64,000 bases of DNA from Lentisphaeria bacterium (GTDB lineage Bacteria; Verrucomicrobiota; Lentisphaeria; JABSQK01; JAWLHB01): the NCBI GenBank assembly GCA_041690595.1, contig JAWLHB010000012.1, positions 36,785 to 100,784 of the forward strand, given 5' to 3'. Both the position numbers and the translations under genes were made by a program. The notes under the pieces were generated by a model that saw nothing but the letters and a program-made list of their open reading frames with translations, was not told the origin of the DNA and searched no databases. Each line of letters opens with the position of its first letter. Position 1 is the first letter of the stretch. Of this stretch, positions 1 to 12,738 are shown in pieces.

Positions 1-1660
1 TGAAGCTTTCCCGGATCAGGAGCTGATGGAAGATCACGTAGAGGGGAGTCAGTGGCCACTCCGACCAATCCCGATTGGCCGTAAGGGAGTGTATCCAGAA
101 CTCACCGCCCCCCATGCCGATACGCAAGGCCAGCGGCGCCTCGCTGGCGAACTGCAGCCAGGTGGAGATGCCGGCACCGACGGCATCGCCGGGGAGCCCG
201 ATCGTGAGGCGCGCCTTGCCGCTGATGTCGGGAAGACGTCGCAGTGCGCCCCGGCTGCGACGCTCGATCGCATGCGGAAGCTCCGATGCGACGGGGCGGA
301 AGGTCTGGGTGGTTGGGAAGCGCTGCACTTCAAAGCGTAACGCCTGCAACGGCTTGAGGACATCCTGGCTCGACTCGATGCCCCCAGCGTCACCGGGATA
401 GAGACTCACGGTGCCCCCATTGCGTACATAGTCCTCGAGCTTGATTGCGAGATTGGCCGTGAAACGGGGCGGATTGGCGATCAGGACTGCCTGGTACTCC
501 GCCAGGTCGAGTGCCGGCAGGTCGTCCCACTCGATCACGTCGCTCCGAATAAGCGGATTTTCAAGATTCTGAGGATTCAGCGCCCGGTTCAGATAGAAGG
601 TGTCCGCCTGGAAGGGAACGGCCGCGCTCGTGCCGTTGACGAGCAGGACACGGACATGCTCCTGACGGGCCAGGGCAAAGTAATGGACATTGTCGACGTC
701 CAGCGGATCGTTGTCGAGCTGCAGACGCCCCGCGGCAAACGCCCCCTCGGCGGCGACAACGGCCTCGATAGCGAAGGGCATCCTGCCGGCCGGGGTCAGG
801 GGCAATCCAACTTGGGCAGCTTCCGCCTCGTCCAGAAAGAGATGCAGAGTGCTGGCGCCGGTGAAGCTGGCATCGGTATGAACCTCGCCTCGTACCAGCA
901 GATCACCGCCGCCGAGGATTGCCTCGGGAGCCAGCCGCACGTCGGTGATCCAGGAATTACCCGTCGTGGACCAGACACGATTGATGAAGAGACGCATGTC
1001 GTTCTCCTGAATCGCCTGGCCGAGAGCGGCGGCATCCTGGCGCTGCCACCCCGTCGCCTGGAAGTCACTGAAGGCATGCAGTTCGACGGTACCGGGGATT
1101 TTCTGCTCGGCCAACTGCGCGACCGTCGCCTGCAGATCGCGCACCAGATCGCCGGCACCGAATCCGCAGACAGCCTCCTGCAGCGCCTTCTGCACCAGGC
1201 CGTGGTTGGTGATGGGGGGAAAGATGACCCGTTCCCGGCCCGGCGCGGCGCCACTGACGATGAGAGCGACCCGATCGTCATCCTTGAGGGTCGCCAGGAC
1301 ATCGAGCGCCCAGTCGCGGGCGCGATCGAAGCGCGTGACATCCATCTCCCGACAGCGCATGCTGGCCGTGCCATCGAGAACGAGGACAACGGTTCTCGCG
1401 CCTTCCGGAAGCCAGCCCGCGGCACGCAGGCGCGGCCGCGCGAAGGCGAGAGCAAGGAGGATGATGATGAGCATGCGCAAGGCGAGGATGAGCACCTGCG
1501 TGAGGTGGCGGGACTTGCGTGTCTTGGCGATGGCCGTCTGAATGAAGCGCAGGGTGCTGAACGAGACGGGCTTCGGATTGCGCCGATTGAGCAGATGCAG
1601 CGCGATGGGGATCGCCGCGGCAGCCAGCGCAAACAGAAACAGGGGGTTTAGAAATGGCAT
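1..1660 (-). CDS. BatA-like protein: N-terminal double-transmembrane (aerotolerance-regulator N-terminal) domain followed by a vWA-like domain. 5'-complete; the 3' end runs off the window start
   Basis: Manual reverse-complement translation from ATG (forward 1658-1660) gives MPFLNPLFLFALAAAAIPIALHLLNRRNPKPVSFSTLRF...VVLVLDGTASM... It stays open to position 1, so it is partial and absent from the ORF track. The LDGTAS stretch is MIDAS-like. The listed + strand ORF 656..1651 is its antisense shadow. Confidence 0.65.
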   Translation of the reverse strand, partial: MPFLNPLFLFALAAAAIPIALHLLNRRNPKPVSFSTLRFIQTAIAKTRKSRHLTQVLILALRMLIIILLALAFARPRLRAAGWLPEGARTVVLVLDGTASMRCREMDVTRFDRARDWALDVLATLKDDDRVALIVSGAAPGRERVIFPPITNHGLVQKALQEAVCGFGAGDLVRDLQATVAQLAEQKIPGTVELHAFSDFQATGWQRQDAAALGQAIQENDMRLFINRVWSTTGNSWITDVRLAPEAILGGGDLLVRGEVHTDASFTGASTLHLFLDEAEAAQVGLPLTPAGRMPFAIEAVVAAEGAFAAGRLQLDNDPLDVDNVHYFALARQEHVRVLLVNGTSAAVPFQADTFYLNRALNPQNLENPLIRSDVIEWDDLPALDLAEYQAVLIANPPRFTANLAIKLEDYVRNGGTVSLYPGDAGGIESSQDVLKPLQALRFEVQRFPTTQTFRPVASELPHAIERRSRGALRRLPDISGKARLTIGLPGDAVGAGISTWLQFASEAPLALRIGMGGGEFWIHSLTANRDWSEWPLTPLYVIFHQLLIRESF

Positions 1661-1800
1661 GAATCCCTCCGGTCGTGCCCTATACTCGGTGACCTCCCTA
1701 ATTTATACCGCTATACGCGGAACGCCACTGATGCCAGTACTGCCCGTTAGAAGTCTTTCCCCGTTTAGCAACTCCGATCTGGGCCCAATGCACGTTTGGC

Positions 1801-2086
1801 CCTCAGCCCAGGGACAGCCCGGGGACAGGTACATTCCCTCAGCCCGGGGAGACAGCCCAGGGACAGGAGACAGCCCGGGGACAGGTACTTCCCTCAGCCC
1901 GGGGACAGGTACTTCCCTCAGCCCGGGGACAGGTGCTTCCCTCAGCCCGGGGACAGGTGCTTCCCTCAGCCCGGGGACAGGTGCTTCCCTCAGCCCGGGG
2001 ACAGGTGCTTCCCTCAGCCCGGGGACAGGTGCTTCCCTCAGCCCGGGGACAGGTACTTCCCTCAGCCCGGGGACAGGTACTTCCCT
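1801..2086. repeat. Tandem 24-bp repeat array (unit cagcccggggacaggt[a/g]cttccct). It has 9 perfect copies at 1871-2086 in the order 2x 'gta', 5x 'gtg', 2x 'gta', plus about 3 degenerate leading copies
   Basis: Read directly from the sequence. Copies abut with no spacers. The array lies in the divergent intergenic region between the BatA-like gene and the IS200-like gene. Confidence 0.9.
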
Positions 2087-2250
2087 TGTTTGCTATATTC
2101 TTTCGGTGGGTATAGATGCGGCTCGCGGCAGCTCCTGCACCACTTCCGGCATGTTTAGTCAACTGCTTGCATATTTCGTCACTCGGCGCTTGACAACGTT
2201 AAATACGGAGTCAAGTTGATGTCCATCACTACAAACAAAGGGGTTTAAAG

Positions 2251-3189
2251 ATGAGAATGGCGCGGATCAAGCATCGAGGCGGCGGCTGCTACTACCATCT
2301 GACAAACCGAACGGCAGGTAGCGAGAAAGACCGGCCCTTTGGTAAGGTTGAGAAGAAGAAGTTCGAGAATCAGGTGCATTCCCTGAGCACGCTGTATTCG
2401 CTGCAGGTGGTAACTCTTTGCGTCATGTGCAATCATTTTCACCTCACACTGTTTGTTCCAGGCGAACCTCCGAGCCGGAAAGAAGCCGCCCGCCGCTACA
2501 ACAAATTCTACAAGGACAGGCACCCCATCACCGCCGACTCGCCCATCGCCGCCGAACTGGCGCCGCGCCTCAATGACATCAGTCACTTCATGCACGATCT
2601 GCAGCAGCGTTTCACGGTCTGGTTCAACAAGAGCCGCCCGATCCGGCGTCGCGGCGCGCTGTGGGCCGGCAGGTTCAAGAGCGTCATCCTCCAACGCGGC
2701 ATGACCCTGTGGAACGCCATCAAGTACATCATCCTTAACCCCGTGCGCGCGAAGATGGTCAACGATCCTGCCGACTATCGCTTCAGCGACTGGGGGCATT
2801 GGCATGAAAGTGGACGACATCCCTTCGAATCCAACTTCGTGACCCACGTCTGTCGCAGCCTTGGCCATCGCGCCGATGGCTGGGATGCCAAGCGGCTTCA
2901 GTCTGAGCTGCGCACCGACCTCGCCCGCACCATGGCTGCCGACGCCGATGCCAACGCGATTCAGGCTGCCTGCGAGAGCGGAAAGAAGCGTCCGGCGCCG
3001 ATCCTGCGCGCCGATCGCCGGAATCGCTGCTGGAGCGATGGCGCGATCATCGGCGATCGGCAATTCGTCCACGAGGTAGCTGGTGCCGTCTACGGCAGCG
3101 ATGCCATCAAGAAGAAACGCCTTGGAAGCGGGCGCCTGCCCGATTCCGGCGAGCTGCTCTACAGCTTCCGCAGGCTGCGCAAGGACTGA
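2251..3189 (+). CDS. IS200/IS605-family (COG1943, RAYT-like) HuH-Y1 transposase, long form (312 aa)
   Basis: HuH motif in CNHFHLTLFVP. GALWAGRFKSVILQ and WNAIKYIILNPVRAKMVND match the Y-I-x-x-N-P-V-x-A-x-hydrophobic catalytic-Tyr helix typical of IS200/RAYT transposases. A GGGG stretch lies 9 nt upstream of the ATG. Confidence 0.75.
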   Translation: MRMARIKHRGGGCYYHLTNRTAGSEKDRPFGKVEKKKFENQVHSLSTLYSLQVVTLCVMCNHFHLTLFVPGEPPSRKEAARRYNKFYKDRHPITADSPIAAELAPRLNDISHFMHDLQQRFTVWFNKSRPIRRRGALWAGRFKSVILQRGMTLWNAIKYIILNPVRAKMVNDPADYRFSDWGHWHESGRHPFESNFVTHVCRSLGHRADGWDAKRLQSELRTDLARTMAADADANAIQAACESGKKRPAPILRADRRNRCWSDGAIIGDRQFVHEVAGAVYGSDAIKKKRLGSGRLPDSGELLYSFRRLRKD

Positions 3190-3299
3190 CGCCCGCCAGC
3201 TGAGCGGGCAGGGAGGCACGGCAGAGCAGACGACTCTCCGGGGTTGGACGGGTCAATGCCTGCTGCGTGCCCGCAGGCCACGTAAGTGCCTGTCGGGGG

Positions 3300-3890
3300 A
3301 GGACGTTCCCGGATGGGGGCACTGCCCATGGTCGGTGCCTGGCCGGGTTCTGCCGGCCACGCCAATTGAGAACGAGGTCGTCATGTGTCCGACTTCTGTT
3401 GTTGAGTGAAGTAGCGTGGTCGGGTTGAGGCGCTCAGACGAGAGGCGAAGAAGTGCCTGTGCCCGTGTTGTGCTCAGACGAGAGGCGAAGAAGCACCTGA
3501 CCCCGTGTTGAGGCGCTCAGGCGAGGGGCGTTCCGGGGGTAGGCGAGGCGAGAAGTACTTGGCGCCGGATTGAGGCGACGGGCCGAGAATTGGTAGTGAC
3601 AAGTACCTGTCCCCGGATTGAGGCGGCGGGCCGAGAATTGGTGGTCACCGCTGCGTTGCCGGGGGCACCGCAGGTGCCACTCAGGCGAGTGGCGTTCCCA
3701 GGAGGAATGGGGCACTGCCGATGATCGATGCCTGGCCCCGTTCTGAAAGCTACGCCAGTTGAGGGGGCGACCGCATCATCTGTGCAACATCCGAGGACGC
3801 AGATTGCTTGATTCGCGTGGAAGCTACCGCTGCATTGCCGAGGCGCCGCAGGTGCCACTCAGGCGAGCGGCGTTCCCAGCATGGGAGCGG
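3300..3890. repeat. Non-coding block of imperfect direct repeats: pairs of ~80-bp (3300-3395 vs 3700-3790), ~50-bp and ~35-bp segments, several carrying the hairpin GGCACCgcaGGTGCC
   Basis: Repeated strings are visible (e.g. gctcagacgagaggcgaagaag... twice; ggattgaggcgRcgggccgagaattggt twice; cgctgcRttgccgRggcRccgcaggtgccactcaggcgagYggcgttccc twice). Only short low-complexity ORFs lie here. Confidence 0.7.
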
Positions 3891-3909
3891 CGATCGAGAC
3901 TGATCCTGA

Positions 3910-4377
3910 TCAATACTGATCCTGATCGAGGAACCTGACGATTTCGCGCTGCAGCTTCGCCTGCCGTTCCGCGATTCTGTCGGCTGGCGTCTCACGGTAG
4001 ATGTCCGTGATGTCACCGGCACCCTCCTGGATGCGCTGGCACAGCTCGCGGGCGGTCAGGACGTCGCCATCGCCGAGGCCGAGGCGTTCCGCCCAACGCT
4101 GATCGAGCAGCAGGTTGTACTCGCGTTTGGAGCCAGGGGCCTGTGGACGAAAGGAGGTGTCGATCGTGTCGTCGCACAGCCCGTCGATGCTGTGGCAGCA
4201 TGGCCGGCAGATGTCATCGGCACCAAACTCCATGCGGAGTTCCACATCGCGTTCGGCGAGCACAGCCTTGGTGACGCTGTGCACTGCGTGGCCGTAGGGA
4301 TGGGGTGGCGGTGCCTCGACACCATCCCCGAAAGCCGTGATGATGTCGACGAAGTGATGTGGCTTAATAGCGATCAT
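3910..4377 (-). CDS. Cys/His-rich small protein, DUF1284-like (putative Fe-S/metal-binding)
   Basis: Translation MIAIKPHHFVDIITAFGDG...ICRPCCHSIDGLCDD. The ATG at 4377 has a GGAGGAG Shine-Dalgarno just upstream. Track ORF 3910..4413 starts further upstream at a weaker start. Confidence 0.55.
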   Translation of the reverse strand: MIAIKPHHFVDIITAFGDGVEAPPPHPYGHAVHSVTKAVLAERDVELRMEFGADDICRPCCHSIDGLCDDTIDTSFRPQAPGSKREYNLLLDQRWAERLGLGDGDVLTARELCQRIQEGAGDITDIYRETPADRIAERQAKLQREIVRFLDQDQY

Positions 4378-4458
4378 CGTCTCCTCCCGTGAATGGGTTG
4401 TCGATAGACCCACTGTTGCAGAAAGACTTCCGCCGCGCAGTACGGGTGGGCCACGGAC

Positions 4459-5457
4459 TCAGCCGATAATCATGGGCTGACGAGCCGGCTGAACGCCATC
4501 CTCGCAGCAAGTCTCGGCGATCTCGATCTGAACCTGCGAGAGGGCATCGATCAGCTCTTCGGGTGACTCGAAGCGGTCGTCAAGATTCTTGGCCATCAAC
4601 AATTCGAAGACTTCGGTGAGCTGGTAAGGAATGTTTGGGGCAATCTCGCTGGCGGGCGTCAGCGGTTCTTCAAGGTGCTTCCAGGCAATTTCCTCTGCGG
4701 TGCGTCCCGTGAAGGGCAGCCTGCCAGTGGTGAGGTGGTAGAAGGTGGCGCCCAGGCTGTACAAGTCGCTGCGCACGTCCATGTCGCTGCCGAGGACATG
4801 TTCCGGGCTCATGTACGGGACCGTGCCGACAATGGTGTCGCTGGACTGGACTTCCGAGAGTTCGCTGCAGCGGCAGGCCATCCGAAAGCCTGTAAGCTTG
4901 GCGTGGCCGGCATCGGCGAGAAAGATATTGGCCGGCTTGATGTCGCGATGCAGGAGATCGTGTTCCTGCCATGCATAATCGATGGCGCGCGCGATCTGCT
5001 GCATGAGCATGATGGCCTGGAAGGGAGGCAACGGACCATCGCTTTCGAGGACGGCTTCGAGATCGCGCCCTTCCAGGTACTCGACGGCGGCAAAGTAGTT
5101 CTCGTCCTCCTGGCCAAGGGCGTAGGCATGCACGATGTGGGGATGAAGTAGCCGCGCCATATAGCGCGCATCCGTAACGAACTGGTTCACCAAGACGGGG
5201 TTGCCCAGCAGCTCGCGCTTCAGGAGTTGCAGGATGACGACACGTTCCAGCGAGAGCTGGTGCGCCAGGTGCAACGTACAGATCCGCGCTTCTCCCAGCC
5301 CTGCCATCACCACGAAGTCGTTGATCACGATTCCCAGAGCAAGGCGCGATGCCGGTATCAGCGTCTCTTTCTGACAGAAGTCGCAGATGATGGTATCATT
5401 GAAGGTGACCGTCTGGCGGTCGAGAATCTTCTCACATTGAGAGCACAAAAAGCGCAT
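4459..5457 (-). CDS. Zinc-ribbon Ser/Thr protein-kinase-like protein, probably a pseudokinase
   Basis: N-terminal CSQCEKIL...CDFC zinc ribbon. Kinase catalytic loop HRDIKPANIF and activation segment GTVPYMSPE are present. DFG is replaced by TGF, and no clear VAIK lysine or GxGxxG loop was seen. Confidence 0.7.
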   Translation of the reverse strand: MRFLCSQCEKILDRQTVTFNDTIICDFCQKETLIPASRLALGIVINDFVVMAGLGEARICTLHLAHQLSLERVVILQLLKRELLGNPVLVNQFVTDARYMARLLHPHIVHAYALGQEDENYFAAVEYLEGRDLEAVLESDGPLPPFQAIMLMQQIARAIDYAWQEHDLLHRDIKPANIFLADAGHAKLTGFRMACRCSELSEVQSSDTIVGTVPYMSPEHVLGSDMDVRSDLYSLGATFYHLTTGRLPFTGRTAEEIAWKHLEEPLTPASEIAPNIPYQLTEVFELLMAKNLDDRFESPEELIDALSQVQIEIAETCCEDGVQPARQPMIIG

Positions 5458-5537
5458 GAGCTACCATGATGGCTGAGCCCGCGGCGCGGTGGTCTGCCTC
5501 TGACCTGACGCCGTAAGCCCGGGGATGTACCCGCGGT

Positions 5538-8500
5538 TCAGTTATCCAGGTTCTTGTAGTAGTCGGAGACGATACCCCTGTAGTCCTCGTCGATGTCCTG
5601 CAAGCCCGTGTCGTCGCCGGCGCTTCCGCCGGATGCCTCGCTGCTGGAGACGCTCATTGGCAGAACAGCTCCCGAAGCAAGCTCTGTCTGCGTTTCCTGC
5701 AACTGCTTCATGACGCGCTGCTGCAGGCTGGCGTATTCCTTCTGATCCTTGTCCATGCGCTCGACGCGCCGCATATCCCGGGCCGCCTCTCCCAGCGGTT
5801 CGGTATTGTTCATGTAGAGGAGTCGTGCGGTGGCGTACATGGCTTCTGTTTCCTGGCGGAGCGCCTGATTTGCGGAGGGGGCCTGCATGTGCATGTCGCG
5901 GCGCGGGGCGTTGCCGAACATCCCGATGGTTTCAGATTCGCCGCCGAGCTTGCCACCGCCGGTGGCCCGCGCATCCAGAGTCGAATCCTCGGCCTCTTCC
6001 ACCTGCCCCTTCTGCAGGGGATCATTGGTCTTGCGCGCATGCGTTTCGCGTCCTTCCAACCCCTTCACGGTGTTTTCGACAAGCTCGCCAGTAGACTGCC
6101 CTTCGCGGCCCGCGCCACTGCGGCCGGTCATCTCGTTGTCATTCGGCTTGGTGTTGCCGGACTTCCCTTTGGCCGAAAAATTGGGCATCGGCCCGTCCAT
6201 CACGCCCCACCCCATTTCGGCATCCGCCATCATCTGGTTGCCGGTACTGTCCTGGGACTGCATATCGATATCGGCCGATTGATCGAGGAGGTCGCCAACG
6301 ATGTCTTCAAGCTCTTCCGGCAGATCGACGAGAGGCATGTCGGGAAATTCGGCGGCATCGAAGCTTTCGAGATCCCACTTGATATTGTCAGGAATGTCCG
6401 GAAGCCACATTTCGACATCCTCGACACGTTCCTTGGTGTTCTTGATCGCTTCGAGCAAGCCATCTTCCTTCTGCACGGCAATCTCGACGCTGGGCGCGTT
6501 CTCGCTGTTGGCTGCCTGCTCCACGTCCTCGTACACTTCGCGCATCTTGCTGTTGAGATCGTTGCTGACCGGGAGTTCCGGGAACTGGTAGAGATCCTGA
6601 GCCATCTTCTCAATCTTCTCCTGCCACTGCTTCTGCTCCTCGTCAAGCTTCGCCAGTTCCGCCCGCACCTTGTCATCGAGATTGCCCCGGCGGGTAAGAT
6701 CCTTAGTCACTTCCACAATCTCGTTCTGGCGCTTCTCCATGTCGGCAAGCTGCTCGGCAATGTCTCGCAACGTCATCGAGGCATCGGCTATGGACTCGCG
6801 GGCCTTCTCGACGCGCCACTTGTTCATGATCTTGAGCGCTTCCGTCAGCAGGCGCAGCGCCTCTTCCTCGGCCTGGATGCCGGCGGCCCAGTTGACCTGA
6901 CTCAGCTCGTCGGCCGCGGTGAGCATCTTCTCGTAGAGTCGGCCGCTGGTGAGCAGCACATGAACGTTGGCCAACTGCCGGGCAAAGCTGTCTTCGCTTT
7001 CCGCGTTGGCCATACGCTTGACGGCTTCGATGAAGAGAATCGCTTCGTCAGCCAGTTGCTCCTGGCGCCGCACCAGGAGAGCGACACCGTCCCCCTGCAG
7101 TTCGGCCTGCATACCGCTCTTCGTATCGGCCAGAAGCTCGCGCTGACGAGCGACCATGCGCTGCAGCTGCCCCAGAAGATCCGTCTTGTCCTTGTAGGAC
7201 TGCTCGTTGGCAAGGGCCGTGGGCAGCCCCGTCAGCACAGCCAGAATGCGCGCCTGGAGGGCGATGGCTTCTGCGAGAGGCGCCATGCGCTCCCGGTCCG
7301 GCGCCCGCGTCAAGGCATCCAAGGCCGCAACCGCCTGCTGCATCTCATTGGTCTCCAGTTCCCTGAGCGTGATCAGGAGATCCCCGAGGACCGCATCGTG
7401 CGTCAGGAGTTCAGCAGCCAGCCGGCGAATCTCAACCTGGGCCACCAGAAGAGGCGCCATGGCGGCAACGTCGACAGTGCTACTGCCGCCGGCAAGCTGA
7501 GTCTGCAGTTTGCGGCTGCCGGACAGATTCTCTTTCTGGAGTTGGATCAGGCGAGCAACGGAGCGTTCGCTTTCTGCCCGTTTGCCCTGGACGGAGCGAC
7601 GCTCTTCGTCCGGCAGCGGGATGACGATATCCATGAGCCGTGAAGCTCCCTGCCGTGCCTCGGCGGCAGGTCCGGCATCACGCGCCAGGAGGCGGAAACG
7701 CAGGCGGGAACCAGCTTTCGCCCCCAGCGCCGCCAGGTCGACTGCGAAATGGCCACGCATCTCCCGGCGAAGCTCGTCATTGCGCTCGACCGCAATCTCC
7801 TGATCGGCCCCATCCTTCTCCACGCGTACACAGAGGACAGACGCAACGCCGTACTCGTCGCGCGCCACGAAAGGCAAGGCGATGCGCTCGCCGGGCGCCG
7901 CGGTGATCTGGCGCAGGTCGGTGGCAAAGTCGACCGTCGGCCCGAGGTCGGGCAGGATGGTCAACGGCAGAGGAATGCGGGCATCGAGTCCCGCCGTCGA
8001 TACCAACCTCAACTGAAGTGGAGCGGTGCCCGGCACCGGGAAGGTGACACGAAAATCGGCGGCATCGGCCACGGCAGCAGCCTGAAGCTCGCGTCCATCC
8101 TGCAGCACGACGACCTGGCGAAGAGGCTGGGAGGACTTGCCGGTGAGCTGTACCTCCGCGCCCACGGGAATCCCCCCCTCCGGCTGCTCCGAGCTGAGCC
8201 TGCGTCGCGGCAGAGAGGTATAGGCAGGCGGTTGCACGTCCGCCGCCCAGTTCACCAGGGAAGGCGGACTCTGCACGCCGATTGTGAAGCGGGGGGAGCG
8301 GGCATCATTGGCAATGAACCAGTAGGTGGTGCTGTCGAAAAGCAGGGGAGTCTCGGCGGTGAAGCTCAGGGGCTCTCCGTCGACGGCAACGAGCATGATC
8401 TGCTTTGCCTCGCCACGCTCCGGTTGCACGACCAGCATCGGCTTGCGCGGCACTTTCCCTTCCAGGCGAACGCGAATGAGAGCCTTTTCTCCACGTGGGA

Positions 8501-9101
8501 CAATGGTATTGCCTGGCAGCACGTCGGCAATGCGGGTGAGGCTGTATGGCTCCAGGCCACGCATCGGCATGAGCAGCCGCTGCACGGATACCTCCATGCC
8601 ACGCGGGTTGAGGGCGAAGACAAGGATACCGGCGCATAACGCCAGGGCGGAAGCGGTTGCCGTCATCTTCAGCCAGTGAAGCGGGAAGAGCTGCCAGGCA
8701 CTGATGTGGTCAAGCTGGACGGGCTGGGTTCCCATCAGGCTCTGCGCAAACCGTCGCTCACGCTCGTCGGCGGAGTTGGAAAACTGGACCACGTTGATCA
8801 GCCGGTTGCCCAACTCGGGGCTGCAGCTCTCGACGCGGCTGCACATGTGTTCGGCGGTCATGCGGCGCGTGGCGCTCCAGACGCACATGCCCAGCAACCC
8901 CAGCACAAAGATCCAGAGCATGGCCCAGCCCGTCCAGCAAAGGGCCGGCGACAGCTGGAAGGCCAGGTCACTGAGCACAAAGAGCAACACCGACCAGAGG
9001 GCGATGGCGACAATCCCCAGTCCGGCGGCAGTCATCAGCCAACCCTTGTAGCCTCGGCGCAAAGCAGTCAGCCTCGCCTGAATCTGGTCGAGCGAACTCA
9101 T
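5538..9101 (-). CDS. Large (~1187 aa) membrane-anchored coiled-coil protein of unknown function. It has 3-4 N-terminal TM helices, a long coiled-coil middle and a highly acidic C-terminus
   Basis: Long ORF with TM segments near the N-terminus (GLGIVAIALWSVLLFVL, LWIFVLGLLGMCVW, ASALALCAGILVFAL). ATG at 9101 chosen over GTG at 9182 because the extra 27 codons are AT-rich (TTA/CTA codons), atypical for this genome. Same strand and adjacent to the ABC/CPBP genes. Confidence 0.7.
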   Translation of the reverse strand: MSSLDQIQARLTALRRGYKGWLMTAAGLGIVAIALWSVLLFVLSDLAFQLSPALCWTGWAMLWIFVLGLLGMCVWSATRRMTAEHMCSRVESCSPELGNRLINVVQFSNSADERERRFAQSLMGTQPVQLDHISAWQLFPLHWLKMTATASALALCAGILVFALNPRGMEVSVQRLLMPMRGLEPYSLTRIADVLPGNTIVPRGEKALIRVRLEGKVPRKPMLVVQPERGEAKQIMLVAVDGEPLSFTAETPLLFDSTTYWFIANDARSPRFTIGVQSPPSLVNWAADVQPPAYTSLPRRRLSSEQPEGGIPVGAEVQLTGKSSQPLRQVVVLQDGRELQAAAVADAADFRVTFPVPGTAPLQLRLVSTAGLDARIPLPLTILPDLGPTVDFATDLRQITAAPGERIALPFVARDEYGVASVLCVRVEKDGADQEIAVERNDELRREMRGHFAVDLAALGAKAGSRLRFRLLARDAGPAAEARQGASRLMDIVIPLPDEERRSVQGKRAESERSVARLIQLQKENLSGSRKLQTQLAGGSSTVDVAAMAPLLVAQVEIRRLAAELLTHDAVLGDLLITLRELETNEMQQAVAALDALTRAPDRERMAPLAEAIALQARILAVLTGLPTALANEQSYKDKTDLLGQLQRMVARQRELLADTKSGMQAELQGDGVALLVRRQEQLADEAILFIEAVKRMANAESEDSFARQLANVHVLLTSGRLYEKMLTAADELSQVNWAAGIQAEEEALRLLTEALKIMNKWRVEKARESIADASMTLRDIAEQLADMEKRQNEIVEVTKDLTRRGNLDDKVRAELAKLDEEQKQWQEKIEKMAQDLYQFPELPVSNDLNSKMREVYEDVEQAANSENAPSVEIAVQKEDGLLEAIKNTKERVEDVEMWLPDIPDNIKWDLESFDAAEFPDMPLVDLPEELEDIVGDLLDQSADIDMQSQDSTGNQMMADAEMGWGVMDGPMPNFSAKGKSGNTKPNDNEMTGRSGAGREGQSTGELVENTVKGLEGRETHARKTNDPLQKGQVEEAEDSTLDARATGGGKLGGESETIGMFGNAPRRDMHMQAPSANQALRQETEAMYATARLLYMNNTEPLGEAARDMRRVERMDKDQKEYASLQQRVMKQLQETQTELASGAVLPMSVSSSEASGGSAGDDTGLQDIDEDYRGIVSDYYKNLDN

Positions 9102-9184
9102 GAAGTACCTCGTGATGCCGCGGAAGCGTATGCCCCTCAGTAGTAATAAACTATACGCTGTCCCAACGAAAGATCCAGCCACGA

Positions 9185-11344
9185 TCAGGTAATGCCGGTA
9201 ATGCCGGGGTCCCCCTCCTGAAGCGAGGCGCAGGGGCTTTCCTCTTCGCGCCCGATCACCAGCAGTCCCGCCACAAAGACAAGGATGGCGACCGCCATCC
9301 AGCGCCAGTCGAGGCCATCTCCCGCGGCACCGGTCAAACCCGGCAGCCAGTTGTACTTCATAGCCATGACACCAATGAAATTATTGATGCCGTGCACGAG
9401 CACGCCGGTCCACAGGGATCCTGTCTGGAAGACAACCCAGGTGATGACCAGTCCGAGCACCGCCGTAGGAAAGATGCGGTAGATGCTGAGGTGGAAGAAG
9501 CCGAACATCAGCGCGGTGAAGACGATGACAGTCCACTTGCCTAGCCTGCCGCGAAGACTCCCGAGAATCAAGCCGCGAAAGAAAAACTCTTCGCAGATGG
9601 CGGGAGAGATGCAGAAGGCGAGGAGCAATTGCCAATCCATCAGCCGCAGATCGTCAAGCCCAAGTGCTTCACGCATGCGCTCCTCGAACTCCAGCGGCAC
9701 CGGAAGCACCATGTTCTGCAACCAGGAGGCGAAGTGGCCAACCACAGCCCAGGCCGTCATCCCAATCAGCACCGCACCCAGAACTCCACGCCACCGGGGC
9801 CGACAGATCGACAGAGCCAGGTGAGGGTCGAGCTTGAGCATTCGCACCAGGAAGGCGACAGGCAGGAAGAGAAGAACCCATTGCGTGCCCAGCATGCCCC
9901 AGAAGATATCGGCCTCCTGCATCGCCGAACCAACATAATAGAGCAGCACCAACAGCACACCGAAGGCGATCAGGGCAAGCATGGGGCGGGGGCGCCGATG
10001 CCGAATCTCGACAAGATCGAGGACCTCCCCCACCGGGGTCTGTCCGCCCAGCAACACCTGCTCGTTCTGAAAGATCTTGACGGCCAGGGCAAGCGCACCC
10101 GCGGCGTAGAGGGTGTTGGCCAGCATGACCATGGCGATCAACCAGGCAGCGGGCGGCTCCTGCAACATCTCGCGCAACAGCAGCATGATGTTCAGACCGG
10201 GCGCCCAGCTCGTCGCCAGATCGAGCCGCACCGAGGGTAACGCCGCGATCGCCGCCGGCACGATGACCAGGATGTAGACCGGCGTCAGGTAATTCTGGGC
10301 CTCCTTGAAGCTGTGCGCGAAGACGGCGATGGCCAGCATCAGGGCCGAGAAGAAGACCGCGATCGGCACCAGCTGCACCAGCACCAGCAGCACGGTGGAA
10401 AAGTCGACATGAAAGATGAATTCCTCACTGCGGGGAGAACTGCGCAGCATCCAGGCAATAGCCATCGCCATACTCACCAGGTTCGCCAGGGCCGAAAGCA
10501 TCGCTACGGTGAAGACCGTGAAGAATTTGCCCATGATGATCTCGGTGGGACGTGCCGGTGCGGTCAGCAATGTCTGCATGGTGCCGCGTTCCTTCTCACC
10601 GGCAGTCAGATCGATGGCTGGATAAAATGCGCCGAGCATCACCATCACCATGAGGACCAGAGGGATGATCCTGCCGGCCAGAAAGCCCCCGCGCTTCTGG
10701 GCGGTGGCGGTATTCTGGGAATCGATGAGCACCGGCAGAAAGAAGCCCTCCGGCAACTCGGGGCGACGCTCGAGACGCTCGTCCCGCAAGGCTTCCCGCC
10801 AGACCAGCAGGGCATCTTCGATCCGGTTCTTGGCCGTCCGCGACTCATGGACGGTCTCGTCGTAGAGGATCGCGATCGGGACGCTGCCCTCCTCAGCCAG
10901 CACCTGCTCGATGTTCAGGGGCACCACCAGAACCGCATCGGTCCGGCTGCGATCGATCATGCGGCGGGCCCAGGTGACCATCTCCTCCGGGGCTTGGGTG
11001 CGCGCAAAGGGAAGAACGGCTTCCCCACCTTCTTCGTCCACCTTCGGCGGCAGGATCGGCATGGATTCGGGCGCTGCCGGCCCAAAGTCCGGCACCAGCG
11101 CCTCAAACGCCTCGGCGTCGGCGAGTTGTCGGCGCAAGCCGTACGGCAGTGGCCCCTTGATCCAGACCCGAACCTTCTGCTCCTGCATCTGCGACATCTG
11201 GTGGGTGACCACCTGCCCAAAGGCAATGATAAGCAACGGATACATGACCATCGGCAGCAGCAACATGACCAGCAGGGTTCGCCGGTCTCGCAACGTCTCC
11301 AGCAGCTCCTTGCGAAAAATGGTGGTGGCAATTCGCCAGCGCAT
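9185..11344 (-). CDS. Fusion protein: ABC-2-type transporter permease (N-terminal) plus CPBP/CAAX-type intramembrane metalloprotease domain (C-terminal)
   Basis: N-terminus MRWRIATTIFRKELLETLRDRRTL is typical of ABC-2 permeases. The C-terminus carries CPBP motifs EEFFFRG (EExxxR), FGFFHLS (FxxxH) and HGINNF (HxxxN). Its ATG overlaps the TGA of the upstream ATPase gene (ATGA). Confidence 0.8.
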   Translation of the reverse strand: MRWRIATTIFRKELLETLRDRRTLLVMLLLPMVMYPLLIIAFGQVVTHQMSQMQEQKVRVWIKGPLPYGLRRQLADAEAFEALVPDFGPAAPESMPILPPKVDEEGGEAVLPFARTQAPEEMVTWARRMIDRSRTDAVLVVPLNIEQVLAEEGSVPIAILYDETVHESRTAKNRIEDALLVWREALRDERLERRPELPEGFFLPVLIDSQNTATAQKRGGFLAGRIIPLVLMVMVMLGAFYPAIDLTAGEKERGTMQTLLTAPARPTEIIMGKFFTVFTVAMLSALANLVSMAMAIAWMLRSSPRSEEFIFHVDFSTVLLVLVQLVPIAVFFSALMLAIAVFAHSFKEAQNYLTPVYILVIVPAAIAALPSVRLDLATSWAPGLNIMLLLREMLQEPPAAWLIAMVMLANTLYAAGALALAVKIFQNEQVLLGGQTPVGEVLDLVEIRHRRPRPMLALIAFGVLLVLLYYVGSAMQEADIFWGMLGTQWVLLFLPVAFLVRMLKLDPHLALSICRPRWRGVLGAVLIGMTAWAVVGHFASWLQNMVLPVPLEFEERMREALGLDDLRLMDWQLLLAFCISPAICEEFFFRGLILGSLRGRLGKWTVIVFTALMFGFFHLSIYRIFPTAVLGLVITWVVFQTGSLWTGVLVHGINNFIGVMAMKYNWLPGLTGAAGDGLDWRWMAVAILVFVAGLLVIGREEESPCASLQEGDPGITGIT

Positions 11345-12075
11345 CAGATATCATCTCCTATCAGGCTGAGGAAGATCTCGGTGAGTGCCTGCCGGCCGGT
11401 CTGCTCCTGCAACTCCATCAGTGATCCTTCCGCCTTGACCACGCCGCGATGAATCAGAATGATCCGGTCGCACAGGTATTCCGCTTCACCCATGACGTGA
11501 GTGGAAAAGAGGACCGCCCTCCCCTCGGCTTTCGCCTGCAGAATGGCATCGAGGATGAACTTGCCGGTGACGATATCCAGCGCGGTGGTCGGCTCGTCCA
11601 GAATCAGGACGGGCGGATCATGCACGAGCGTCCGGGCGATATTGGCCTTCTGCTGCTGACCGGTCGAGAGGGTGCCGCATTGCCGATCGGCAAATCCCTC
11701 CATCTTGAGGTGCGAGAAGAGCCGCTCGGTGCGCTCCGCAATGAGGGAGTCGTCCATCTCGTGCAGGCGCCCGAAAAAGCGCAGCATCTCGCGTGGGGTC
11801 AGCCGTTTGTAAAGCTTGGTATCGCCAGTGAGAAATCCAAGCCGCTGCTTCACGTCGAGAGGCGAACGGAGGGTATCGAAGCCACATACGGCAGCGCGTC
11901 CATGAGTCGGTGCAAGAATGCCAGCCAGCATGCGGAGGCTCGTTGTCTTGCCGGCGCCATTCGGCCCGAGAAGCCCGACGACTTCCCCCCCATGCACATG
12001 GAGGTCGAGCCGCTTGAGCGCTTCCACGCTCCCATACTCCTTTCCCAGGTTGACTGCCTCAAGCAGCGGTTCCAT
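11344..12075 (-). CDS. ABC transporter ATP-binding protein
   Basis: Walker A GPNGAGKTT, ABC signature LSTGQQQK, Walker B LILDEPTTALD. ATG at 12075 (MEPLLEAVNLGKEYG) preferred over the TTG at 12114 used by the track. Confidence 0.85.
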   Translation of the reverse strand: MEPLLEAVNLGKEYGSVEALKRLDLHVHGGEVVGLLGPNGAGKTTSLRMLAGILAPTHGRAAVCGFDTLRSPLDVKQRLGFLTGDTKLYKRLTPREMLRFFGRLHEMDDSLIAERTERLFSHLKMEGFADRQCGTLSTGQQQKANIARTLVHDPPVLILDEPTTALDIVTGKFILDAILQAKAEGRAVLFSTHVMGEAEYLCDRIILIHRGVVKAEGSLMELQEQTGRQALTEIFLSLIGDDI

Positions 12076-12153
12076 GAGGTTATTCCCGCTCGTGCCGCGG
12101 GAGGCGCCACCCAACCGGAAGCGCCGGCGCCAATCGCCCGATCCCGTGCCGCA

Positions 12154-12738
12154 TCAATTATCGTTCTCCAACCCCTTGAGCTCGTCGCGAATCCGCGCCG
12201 CCTCTTCGTACTGCTCGGCCGTCACCGCTTCGCTCAAGCGCTGCTTCAGTTCTTCTCGGCGATCCAGCGGTTTGTCGGGCTCCTCTTCAGCGGCCCCAGC
12301 GGAGCGCGCCTGGCGGCCTTCCTGCGCCTGGCTGAGGCTGACGCTGTTCTCGCGCAGAATGTCTTCGCGGACGAAAATCGGGGCACTGTAACGCAACGCC
12401 ACGGCAATGGCATCGGAGGGACGCGAGTCGATGTCGAAGTCCTTGCCGTTCTTCTTGAGGAAGATGCGGGCATAGAACGTTCCTTCTTTCAGATCGCAGA
12501 CGTGGATCTTCTCGACGGTGCACTCGAGCGTGGAGAGGATGCTCTTGAGCAGATCGTGGGTCAAGGGGCGGGGGAAGGATTGCTTGTTGAAGGCGGCCGC
12601 TATCGAATGGGCTTCGGCCGCCCCGATGCAGATTGGCAAGACATGCTCATCCGAACCGCGGCGCAGCAGAATGATGAAATTGTAGTTGAAGAGCGAAATG
12701 TTCTCGATCTTCACTTCGACGTAGCGTTCGGCAGCCAT
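12154..12738 (-). CDS. Bifunctional nuclease (BFN/DUF151) domain protein with C-terminal UVR motif
   Basis: MAAERYVEVKIENI...SRPSDAIAVALRY (BFN-like) then REELKQRLSEAVTAEQYEEAARIRDELKGLE (UvrB/C-type UVR). The track ORF extends 146 aa further 5' in non-protein-like sequence. ATG at 12738 chosen. Confidence 0.7.
   Translation of the reverse strand: MAAERYVEVKIENISLFNYNFIILLRRGSDEHVLPICIGAAEAHSIAAAFNKQSFPRPLTHDLLKSILSTLECTVEKIHVCDLKEGTFYARIFLKKNGKDFDIDSRPSDAIAVALRYSAPIFVREDILRENSVSLSQAQEGRQARSAGAAEEEPDKPLDRREELKQRLSEAVTAEQYEEAARIRDELKGLENDN

Follow-up and report, generated by a model that had tools for sequence, protein, structure and literature searches.

The question raised by this locus is whether six genes that lie on one strand, and that had been read as parts of a single envelope-associated system, belong together at all. 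The locus occupies positions 1-12114 of a 64,000-nucleotide stretch of contig JAWLHB010000012.1 from a Lentisphaeria bacterium (assembly GCA_041690595.1), and this whole stretch is referred to here as the window. A sequence-only reading had proposed that the genes for an ABC transporter ATPase, an ABC-2 permease fused to a CPBP intramembrane protease (ABC-2::CPBP), a giant membrane coiled-coil protein, a pseudokinase, a DUF1284-like protein and a BatA-like protein with a vWA domain form one such system, and that an IS200-like transposase with its repeats may have split their operon. All six minus-strand genes were found to be present, their domain labels proved correct in Pfam and NCBIfam scans, and the envelope association of the products is supported. 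A run of genes on the same strand is nothing unusual by itself, and our comparison with relatives favours, with a probability of about 0.68, a reading in which the region consists of separate units lying side by side and not of one system.

Gene order was compared across approximately 60 related loci, for which the open reading frames (ORFs) of all loci were clustered and the recurrent clusters annotated. The order of the six genes was observed not to be kept in the relatives, and the six-gene system is thereby refuted. The gene for the giant protein (P0001, hereafter the giant) was found by a genome scan at 51 genome loci in the Lentisphaerae, Kiritimatiellota and Verrucomicrobiota; Oligosphaera ethanolica DSM 24202 carries an orthologue at L026. 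Its Verrucomicrobiota/Kiritimatiellia orthologues (26-31% identity) lie in the order DUF4159–x–x–DUF58–BatA/vWA (~740 aa)–TM+GATase1-like (~735 aa)–x (~225 aa)–giant, where x is any other gene and TM stands for transmembrane, and the genes downstream of the giant are TPR-like–x–FHA-MoxR in some loci and unrelated ones in others. A BatA gene orthologous to that of the window was observed upstream of the giant, on the same strand, in 13/13 of these loci with sufficient flank. In the Zixibacteria, a gene that is Pfam-positive for DUF4175 (locus L061) has TPR, MoxR, DUF58, BatA/vWA (703 aa), DUF4159 and GATase1-like (744 aa) genes as its neighbours. Because genes of the giant and BatA families share an operon in all 13 loci and because this arrangement matches the Zixibacteria DUF4175 neighbourhood, the two families can be placed in one ancient system. 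The link between the giant and BatA is therefore real but ancient; the idea of one envelope system holds in so far as these two types of protein share an ancient gene set, but the six genes of the window do not form a conserved unit.

The Lentisphaerae-type orthologues of the giant share 38-50% identity, and their gene is dispersed. Among 35 Lentisphaerae-type genome loci, BatA was found beside the giant in 0/14, ABC-2::CPBP in 0/18 and a kinase in 0/25 of the loci. The nearest relative (L001, giant 54% identity) has the order ABC–ABC-2::CPBP–giant–kinase, followed by Band_7 and P-type ATPase genes, and it is the only locus outside the window in which this full order was observed. The giant followed by the pseudokinase was seen on four other contigs, L001, L057, L058 and L059, the last three of which come from a metagenome scan with the pseudokinase. 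At L059, Rex lies upstream of the giant together with an apparently active kinase of the zinc-ribbon type and an unknown gene, in place of the ABC pair. It appears that in this Lentisphaerae subclade the giant gene would have left the ancestral cluster and gained the pseudokinase as its downstream neighbour, and the nearness of BatA to the giant in the window is peculiar to this genome.

The coordinates of the features are collected in Table 1, and the called products of the ABC-2::CPBP, giant, kinase, DUF1284-like and Y1 genes (five) are identical to the sequences recorded at NCBI. The junctions between the genes had been described as tight, with an ATGA overlap at 11344 and an 84-bp gap at 9101-9185. 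This description fits only the ABC ATPase and permease genes, and there the stop and the start at 11344 read TGATG with a single base in common. The remaining intergenic gaps are about 80 nt each, namely 83 nt (9102-9184), 80 nt (5458-5537) and 81 nt (4378-4458), and a gap of 2249 nt, which holds the Y1 gene, separates the DUF1284-like gene from the BatA gene. The boundaries of the transcription units in this composite model are putative.

Table 1. Features of positions 1-12114 of the window, listed from the right-hand end.
Feature	Coordinates	Strand	Remarks
ABC transporter ATPase	11344..12075	-	243 aa from ATG at 12075; ORF reaches TTG at 12114
ABC-2 permease::CPBP (Rce1-like) intramembrane glutamic protease	9185..11344	-	719 aa; NF041647
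Giant inner-membrane protein (P0001)	5538..9101	-	1187 aa; divergent DUF4175-superfamily, by profile-profile comparison
Cytoplasmic zinc-ribbon pseudokinase	4459..5457	-	332 aa; Pfam Pkinase
Small Cys-rich protein, weakly DUF1284-like	3910..4377	-	155 aa; DUF1284 below cutoff
Repeat-rich spacer	3190..3909		Repeat search and Tandem Repeats Finder (TRF)
Y1 (HUH) transposase-like gene, RAYT-like	2251..3189	+	312 aa; Pfam Y1_Tnp
Tandem array of 24-nt unit	1823..2086		TRF and repeat search
BatA-N (double-TM) + vWA membrane protein gene	1..1660	-	5' 553 codons of 720 aa; leaves window start

No Pfam or NCBIfam match was obtained for the giant, and the Pfam model of DUF4175 (PF13779, gathering threshold 27.3 bits) gave no match for it or for five of its relatives, even at E<=10. 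A word-indexed protein search with the giant returned 5 homologues, a low count which is no sign of rarity since low-complexity and coiled-coil queries saturate the list of 8000 candidates. An exhaustive profile search with a hidden Markov model of the giant family retrieved 11,291 cluster representatives at E<=1e-3, of which 833 also pass E<=1e-30, and the description of the giant as a rare orphan is ruled out by these 11,291 matches. The Pfam threshold for DUF4175 was passed by 3 of 40 diverse members of the family. The family profile retrieves P0281, which NCBI names a 'DUF4175 family protein' and which scores 70.8 bits on PF13779, at E 5.5e-91, and two of the NCBI-named DUF4175 proteins retrieved in this way score 60-71 bits on PF13779. 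Furthermore, an hhalign comparison of the core alignment from the Planctomycetota–Verrucomicrobiota–Chlamydiota (PVC) group with the DUF4175-positive set gave a probability of 100 and an E-value of 2.3e-51 over 665 columns. Since both the family profile and hhalign match proteins that are Pfam-positive or NCBI-named DUF4175, the giant is a divergent member of the DUF4175 superfamily that is overlooked by the Pfam model. We take DUF4175 to be PF13779, and its alphaproteobacterial form to be TIGR02302 'aProt_lowcomp'.

The giant and DUF4175 proteins have in common the N-terminal TM helices, a very long extracytoplasmic region and the motifs PPAYTGL, PDxPPxV and AxDDYGL. MoxR, DUF58, BatA-vWA, DUF4159, GATase1-like and TPR genes are found as neighbours both in the PVC relatives and in the Zixibacteria, and of these genes only BatA-vWA lies nearby in the window. 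Unlike the Pfam-positive members, the window protein is missed by the Pfam model, as are most of its PVC relatives. In the ~1190-aa PVC form, a Gly-rich module in the C-terminal part is strongly conserved, and hhalign leaves it unaligned to the DUF4175 set; in the subclade of the giant the gene lies outside the cluster and is paired with the pseudokinase.

An AlphaFold2 (AF2) model of the giant, made from a 31-sequence alignment (mean pLDDT, the predicted local distance difference test score, 77), has three N-terminal TM helices (4-48, 52-78 and 141-164) followed by three immunoglobulin (Ig)-like beta-sandwiches (189-493) and a helical region of ~460 aa (497-960). The stretch 953-1075 is predicted to be disordered (pLDDT<50), and C-terminal helices follow it. 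The protein had been described as a membrane coiled-coil protein, but the model is helical in only ~40% of its length and includes the Ig-like beta-sandwiches as well. By the positive-inside rule, the giant is likely to have its N-terminus inside the cell, followed in turn by two TM helices, a cytoplasmic loop of ~65 aa in which the sequence NRLINxVQF is conserved, the third TM helix and ~1000 periplasmic residues. A Foldseek comparison of the model with the PDB gave generic tandem-Ig and long-helix matches only, and no solved relative was found by a PDB sequence search.

The Gly-rich stretch (AKGKSGNTKPNDNEMTGRSGAGREGQSTGE ... ATGGGK, in a protein that ends in SDYYKNL) coincides with residues 953-1075 and was found to be the most conserved part of the family. 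Most of the invariant residues of the family lie in it, and G979, N983, P986, G993, G998, R999, G1001, G1005, R1023 and T1047-G1050 are invariant in 40 diverse members. A stretch which is conserved and yet predicted to be disordered points to a motif for binding or assembly.

Two side observations concern the giant gene itself. Antisense ORFs of up to 1640 aa were observed opposite the gene in 43/54 loci, among them 5889-7643 (+) in the window and L010:95-5017, and they cluster by BLAST. Rather than a second gene, they most likely reflect a GC-rich, Ala/Glu/Leu-rich codon usage, which frees the reverse frame of stops. In addition, a 5.6-kb contig that was binned with the Rhodospirillales (L010, JAVEYE010000266.1) carries a full-length giant gene of the Lentisphaerae type with 42% identity, and this contig has probably been mis-binned.

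The BatA gene at the other end of the region has its own surroundings. At full length it encodes a protein of 720 aa (P0006), in which a TM helix lies at the C-terminal end. The N-terminal double-TM domain scores 71.8 bits on Pfam BatA (PF07584, threshold 25.9; E 6.6e-20) and 74.1 on TIGR02226 (threshold 23.05), and the VWA_2 domain scores 38.1 bits (threshold 27; E 2.6e-9), where the metal-ion-dependent adhesion site (MIDAS) reads DGTAS (DxTxS) and not DxSxS. The gene has its own GGAGG site before the ATG and an AT-rich upstream region. The orthologue at L054, which comes from the same sequencing run as L001 and lies on another contig, has EamA before it and, overlapping it by 4 nt, a gene for a 737-aa GATase1-like protein after it; the orthologue at L055 is likewise followed by a ~737-aa GATase1_like gene. 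A tblastn search of the 64-kb window with all the families of the MoxR/Bat cluster found BatA only, with no MoxR and no DUF58, and the window does not extend to the genes downstream of BatA. The BatA-vWA gene would be the first gene of an independent, predicted BatA–GATase1-like unit belonging to the same ancestral MoxR/Bat-like system.

The closest known operons to this unit are the Bat (Bacteroides aerotolerance) and MoxR–DUF58–vWA operons, for example BatA-E of B. fragilis, BB0170-BB0176 of Borrelia (PMC5700661) and the one with MoxR in Riemerella (PMC11834572). The window protein shares with them the N-terminal double-TM domain of BatA and the vWA domain, and the copies of its relatives sit together with DUF58 and the MoxR AAA+ ATPase. 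It differs in belonging to the 'BatA domain-containing' type of ~700 aa, which has a TM helix at the C-terminus and a GATase1-like partner, and not to the ~330-aa BatA/BatB type. Further differences are that the MoxR and DUF58 genes are not in the window and that MoxR carries an N-terminal FHA domain in the Verrucomicrobiota/Kiritimatiellia-type loci that were checked.

At the upstream end of the region, the ABC ATPase has a Pfam ABC_tran match at E 2.4e-29, a best NCBIfam match of drrA/GldA type below cutoff, and intact motifs (Walker A GPNGAGKT, signature LSTGQQQ and Walker B LILDEP). The adjoining permease scores 677.7 bits on NCBIfam NF041647 ABC_perm_CPBP (cutoff 435), with residues 2-664 aligned to positions 1-636 of the 636-column profile, and it has Pfam matches to ABC2_membrane_2/3 and to Rce1-like (E 3.7e-20). 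The CPBP catalytic motifs EExxxR, FxxxH and HxxxN are present in its translation as EEFFFR, FGFFH and HGINN. As regards the NF041647 family, 'ABC transporter permease subunit/CPBP intramembrane protease', the window permease is an ordinary member with no notable difference, being full-length, adjoined by its cognate ATPase and intact in its CPBP motifs. A literature search returned no published function for this family and no paper on an ABC-2::CPBP fusion. The ABC ATPase and ABC-2::CPBP genes would most likely make up a self-contained two-gene exporter or processing module.

A wider grouping of this pair with the giant and the pseudokinase into a four-gene module, in which, for instance, the exporter/protease would see to the processing or insertion of a protein that partners the giant, under control of the pseudokinase, is in our judgement unlikely. 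The order and close spacing of the four genes are kept between the window and L001 at just 52-73% protein identity (73% for the ABC ATPase and 57% for the permease, which holds an equal position in L001), and order kept at such identities argues against mere recent common descent. The grouping does not extend further, as the giant–pseudokinase pair of L059 occurs without the ABC pair, and L003, the giant of which is 50% identical, has neither the ABC pair nor the pseudokinase. The ABC-2::CPBP gene was also found near the giant in 0/15 Verrucomicrobiota-type loci, to be added to the 0/18 of the Lentisphaerae type given above. Moreover, NF041647 is an independently defined family, and the giant is without a C-terminal sorting signal for a CPBP or sortase-like protease.

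The pseudokinase is the more constant partner of the giant in this subclade. It scores 126 bits on Pfam Pkinase (E 2.4e-36), and its label as a pseudokinase was borne out by its motifs, as the beta3 sequence is VILQ (Lys replaced by Gln), the DFG motif is replaced by GFR in TGFRMA, the glycine-rich loop (G-loop) is degenerate and HRDIKPAN is kept. Comparison of the window protein with four orthologues (n=5) showed that the Asp of DFG is replaced by Gly in 5/5 and the beta3 Lys by Q, H or A in 3/5, with a degenerate G-loop, and that HRDxKxxN (HND in L001) and APE are retained together with a conserved N-terminal CxxC...CxxC zinc ribbon. A PknB sequence aligned with them serves for motif placement only. 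Because the degeneracy of the motifs is conserved among the orthologues, the comparison supports a pseudokinase under selection, for which an atypical activity is possible. With Hanks-type Ser/Thr kinases of the PknB type the window protein shares the full kinase fold, the HRDxKxxN loop and the APE motif, and it differs from them in the three degenerate motifs just described, in its N-terminal zinc ribbon and in having no TM or sensor domain. It would probably act as a non-catalytic regulator or adaptor.

Several observations on phospho-signalling were made beside this gene. At L059:4360-5385, two genes upstream of the giant, there is an apparently active kinase with an intact G-loop, the Lys of VAIK, an intact DFG and the same N-terminal zinc ribbon. 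The MoxR proteins of L039:16063-17685 and L062:16332-17708, which were scanned with Pfam, have an N-terminal phospho-Thr-binding domain of the FHA/YscD type, and cluster 11 groups FHA-MoxR-like proteins of L007, L037-L042, L051 and L052. The MoxR of the Zixibacteria (L061) has no FHA domain. A link to phospho-signalling is suggested by these FHA-MoxR fusions and by the kinase and pseudokinase neighbours of the giant at L059 and in the subclade. The MoxR/DUF58/BatA/DUF4175 envelope system of the PVC group might accordingly be imagined as wired to Hanks-type Ser/Thr signalling, such that the pseudokinase docks on the cytoplasmic loop of the giant and allosterically couples an active kinase to the recruitment of FHA-MoxR, which would control the assembly of the periplasmic scaffold. 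We regard this model as a long shot.

The original proposal, namely that all six genes are one envelope operon or system which was split by an IS200-like/repeat block between the DUF1284-like and BatA-like genes, is very improbable in the light of these comparisons. It could draw on the common strand of the six genes, on the co-operonic giant and BatA families of distant PVC relatives and on the multi-copy nature of the Y1 gene, which makes it plausibly mobile. No relative was found with the DUF1284-like gene beside BatA or beside the kinase, and ancestrally the genes ran BatA–GATase1-like–x–giant and not giant–...–BatA. The two flanks lie on separate contigs in the nearest relative, with different neighbours, and the BatA gene carries the GGAGG site and AT-rich upstream region of its own that were described above. 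In relatives lacking the Y1 element the two flanks are non-adjacent, and since none of the relatives keeps synteny with these flanks, neither an empty site nor a trace of an interrupted operon is seen. The Y1 gene would occupy the space between separate transcription units, the one with the DUF1284-like gene and the one with BatA.

The Y1 protein scores 26.8 bits on Pfam Y1_Tnp (PF01797, threshold 23) and 52.7 on NCBIfam REP_Tyr_transpos (threshold 80), the latter a partial match, and its translation shows NHFHL as the HUH motif and KYIILNP as the Tyr helix. Two more copies with 92-93% identity were found on other NCBI contigs, of 31,478 and 75,408 bp, and the neighbouring proteins were all singletons when clustered at 90%; there is no second copy of the Y1 block in the 64-kb window. 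As such similar copies occur elsewhere while the neighbours are singletons, the copies are presumably paralogues in the same genome and the element mobile or recently mobile.

The Y1 gene is preceded by an array of the 24-nt unit GGGGACAGGTRCTTCCCTCAGCCC, with 9 near-perfect copies (1871-2086) and degenerate leading copies. TRF reports a period of 24, 9.0 copies and 98% matches, and the unit has 8 matches in the 64-kb window, every one of them inside the array, with 0 expected. In the spacer on the other side of the gene (3190-3909) the 24-nt unit recurs in inverted orientation, at 3490-3513 and at 3601-3623, and there are also tandem pairs of 40 nt and 48 nt, dispersed repeats of 38 nt and 60 nt, and a TRF repeat at 3432-3510. 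Classical hairpins of repetitive extragenic palindromic (REP) type are unsupported, because the 24-nt units fold no better than their shuffles (z +0.2 to -1.9). With REP-associated tyrosine transposases (RAYT) and the TnpA of IS200/IS605 (IS, insertion sequence) the Y1 gene shares the Y1/HUH fold, the HUH and Tyr motifs and short flanking repeats in opposite orientation. It differs from RAYT in its score, which is below cutoff, in the long C-terminal extension of its product, in having a 9-copy tandem array and not dispersed palindromes on its left flank, in the lack of significant hairpins and in being multi-copy. In its architecture the Y1 block departs from a classical IS200 as well as from a classical REP/RAYT arrangement.

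We give next to no credence to a role in anti-phage defence, as a PD-T4-6 or MADS type of kinase system, be it for the kinase-fold gene alone or for the cluster as a whole, and this reading was rejected. The up to 221 bits on PADLOC PD-T4-6, the 150 bits on mad6 and the NCBIfam MADS6 and PglW matches below cutoff are all confined to the generic Ser/Thr kinase domain, where PknB-type models score equally. The kinase has lost the Mg-binding Asp, most of the orthologues lack the ATP-binding Lys, and the protein conserved beside it is an envelope protein of housekeeping type. PADLOC found no further defence component, its matches being to generic kinase and ABC domains only.

The remaining gene of the region, which encodes the 155-aa protein, scores 20.9 bits on Pfam DUF1284 (PF06935; E 4.8e-4), and as the gathering threshold is 25 the name is a lead only. 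No NCBIfam, PDB or PADLOC match was found for this protein. The gene has a GGAGG site before its ATG at 4377 and is absent downstream of the L001 kinase. It is an unrelated neighbour, with no evidence of belonging with the adjoining genes. In addition, a gene with a bifunctional-nuclease (BFN) domain and a UVR motif lies at 12154-12690 (-), 78 nt upstream of the ABC ATPase, and its position is not kept in L001.

The family of the giant is a regular constituent of the widespread MoxR AAA+/DUF58/BatA-vWA/GATase1-like/DUF4159 gene set, and under the reading of separate units the giant would most likely be a membrane-anchored periplasmic scaffold of that complex. Several points weigh against this reading. 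To our knowledge, no DUF4175 member has an experimentally defined function, so that the role of scaffold is a guess; a full-text literature search for 'DUF4175' returned passing mentions only. The giant and BatA genes are 3.9 kb apart on one strand, and as such a spacing is unlikely to arise by chance in a multi-megabase genome, selection for proximity, secondary clustering or a remnant of the old linkage are all possible. The use of L001 and L054 as one relative depends on their common sequencing run, from which a common genome is presumed. The ABC pair precedes the giant in 2/3 informative members of the subclade (the window and L001, and not L059), and since it precedes the giant–pseudokinase pair there, it may be functionally tied to it. 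Finally, consensus promoter and terminator scans, which are uninformative for this phylum, found no convincing intergenic terminators, and with gaps of ~80 nt the co-transcription of ABC–CPBP–giant–kinase–DUF1284 is possible.

On these findings the six genes make up no single system, and no operon was broken by the Y1 element. The region is a variant of a known and functionally obscure system, and a large unannotated PVC family of ~1190-aa proteins with thousands of representatives can now, by profile comparison, be placed in the DUF4175 superfamily and tied to the MoxR–DUF58–BatA/vWA set. This set is among the most widespread bacterial gene clusters, and a mechanism for it is still lacking. 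The pairing of the giant with a pseudokinase in this subclade and the FHA-MoxR fusions in the neighbouring phyla would provide two handles on the regulation of the system.

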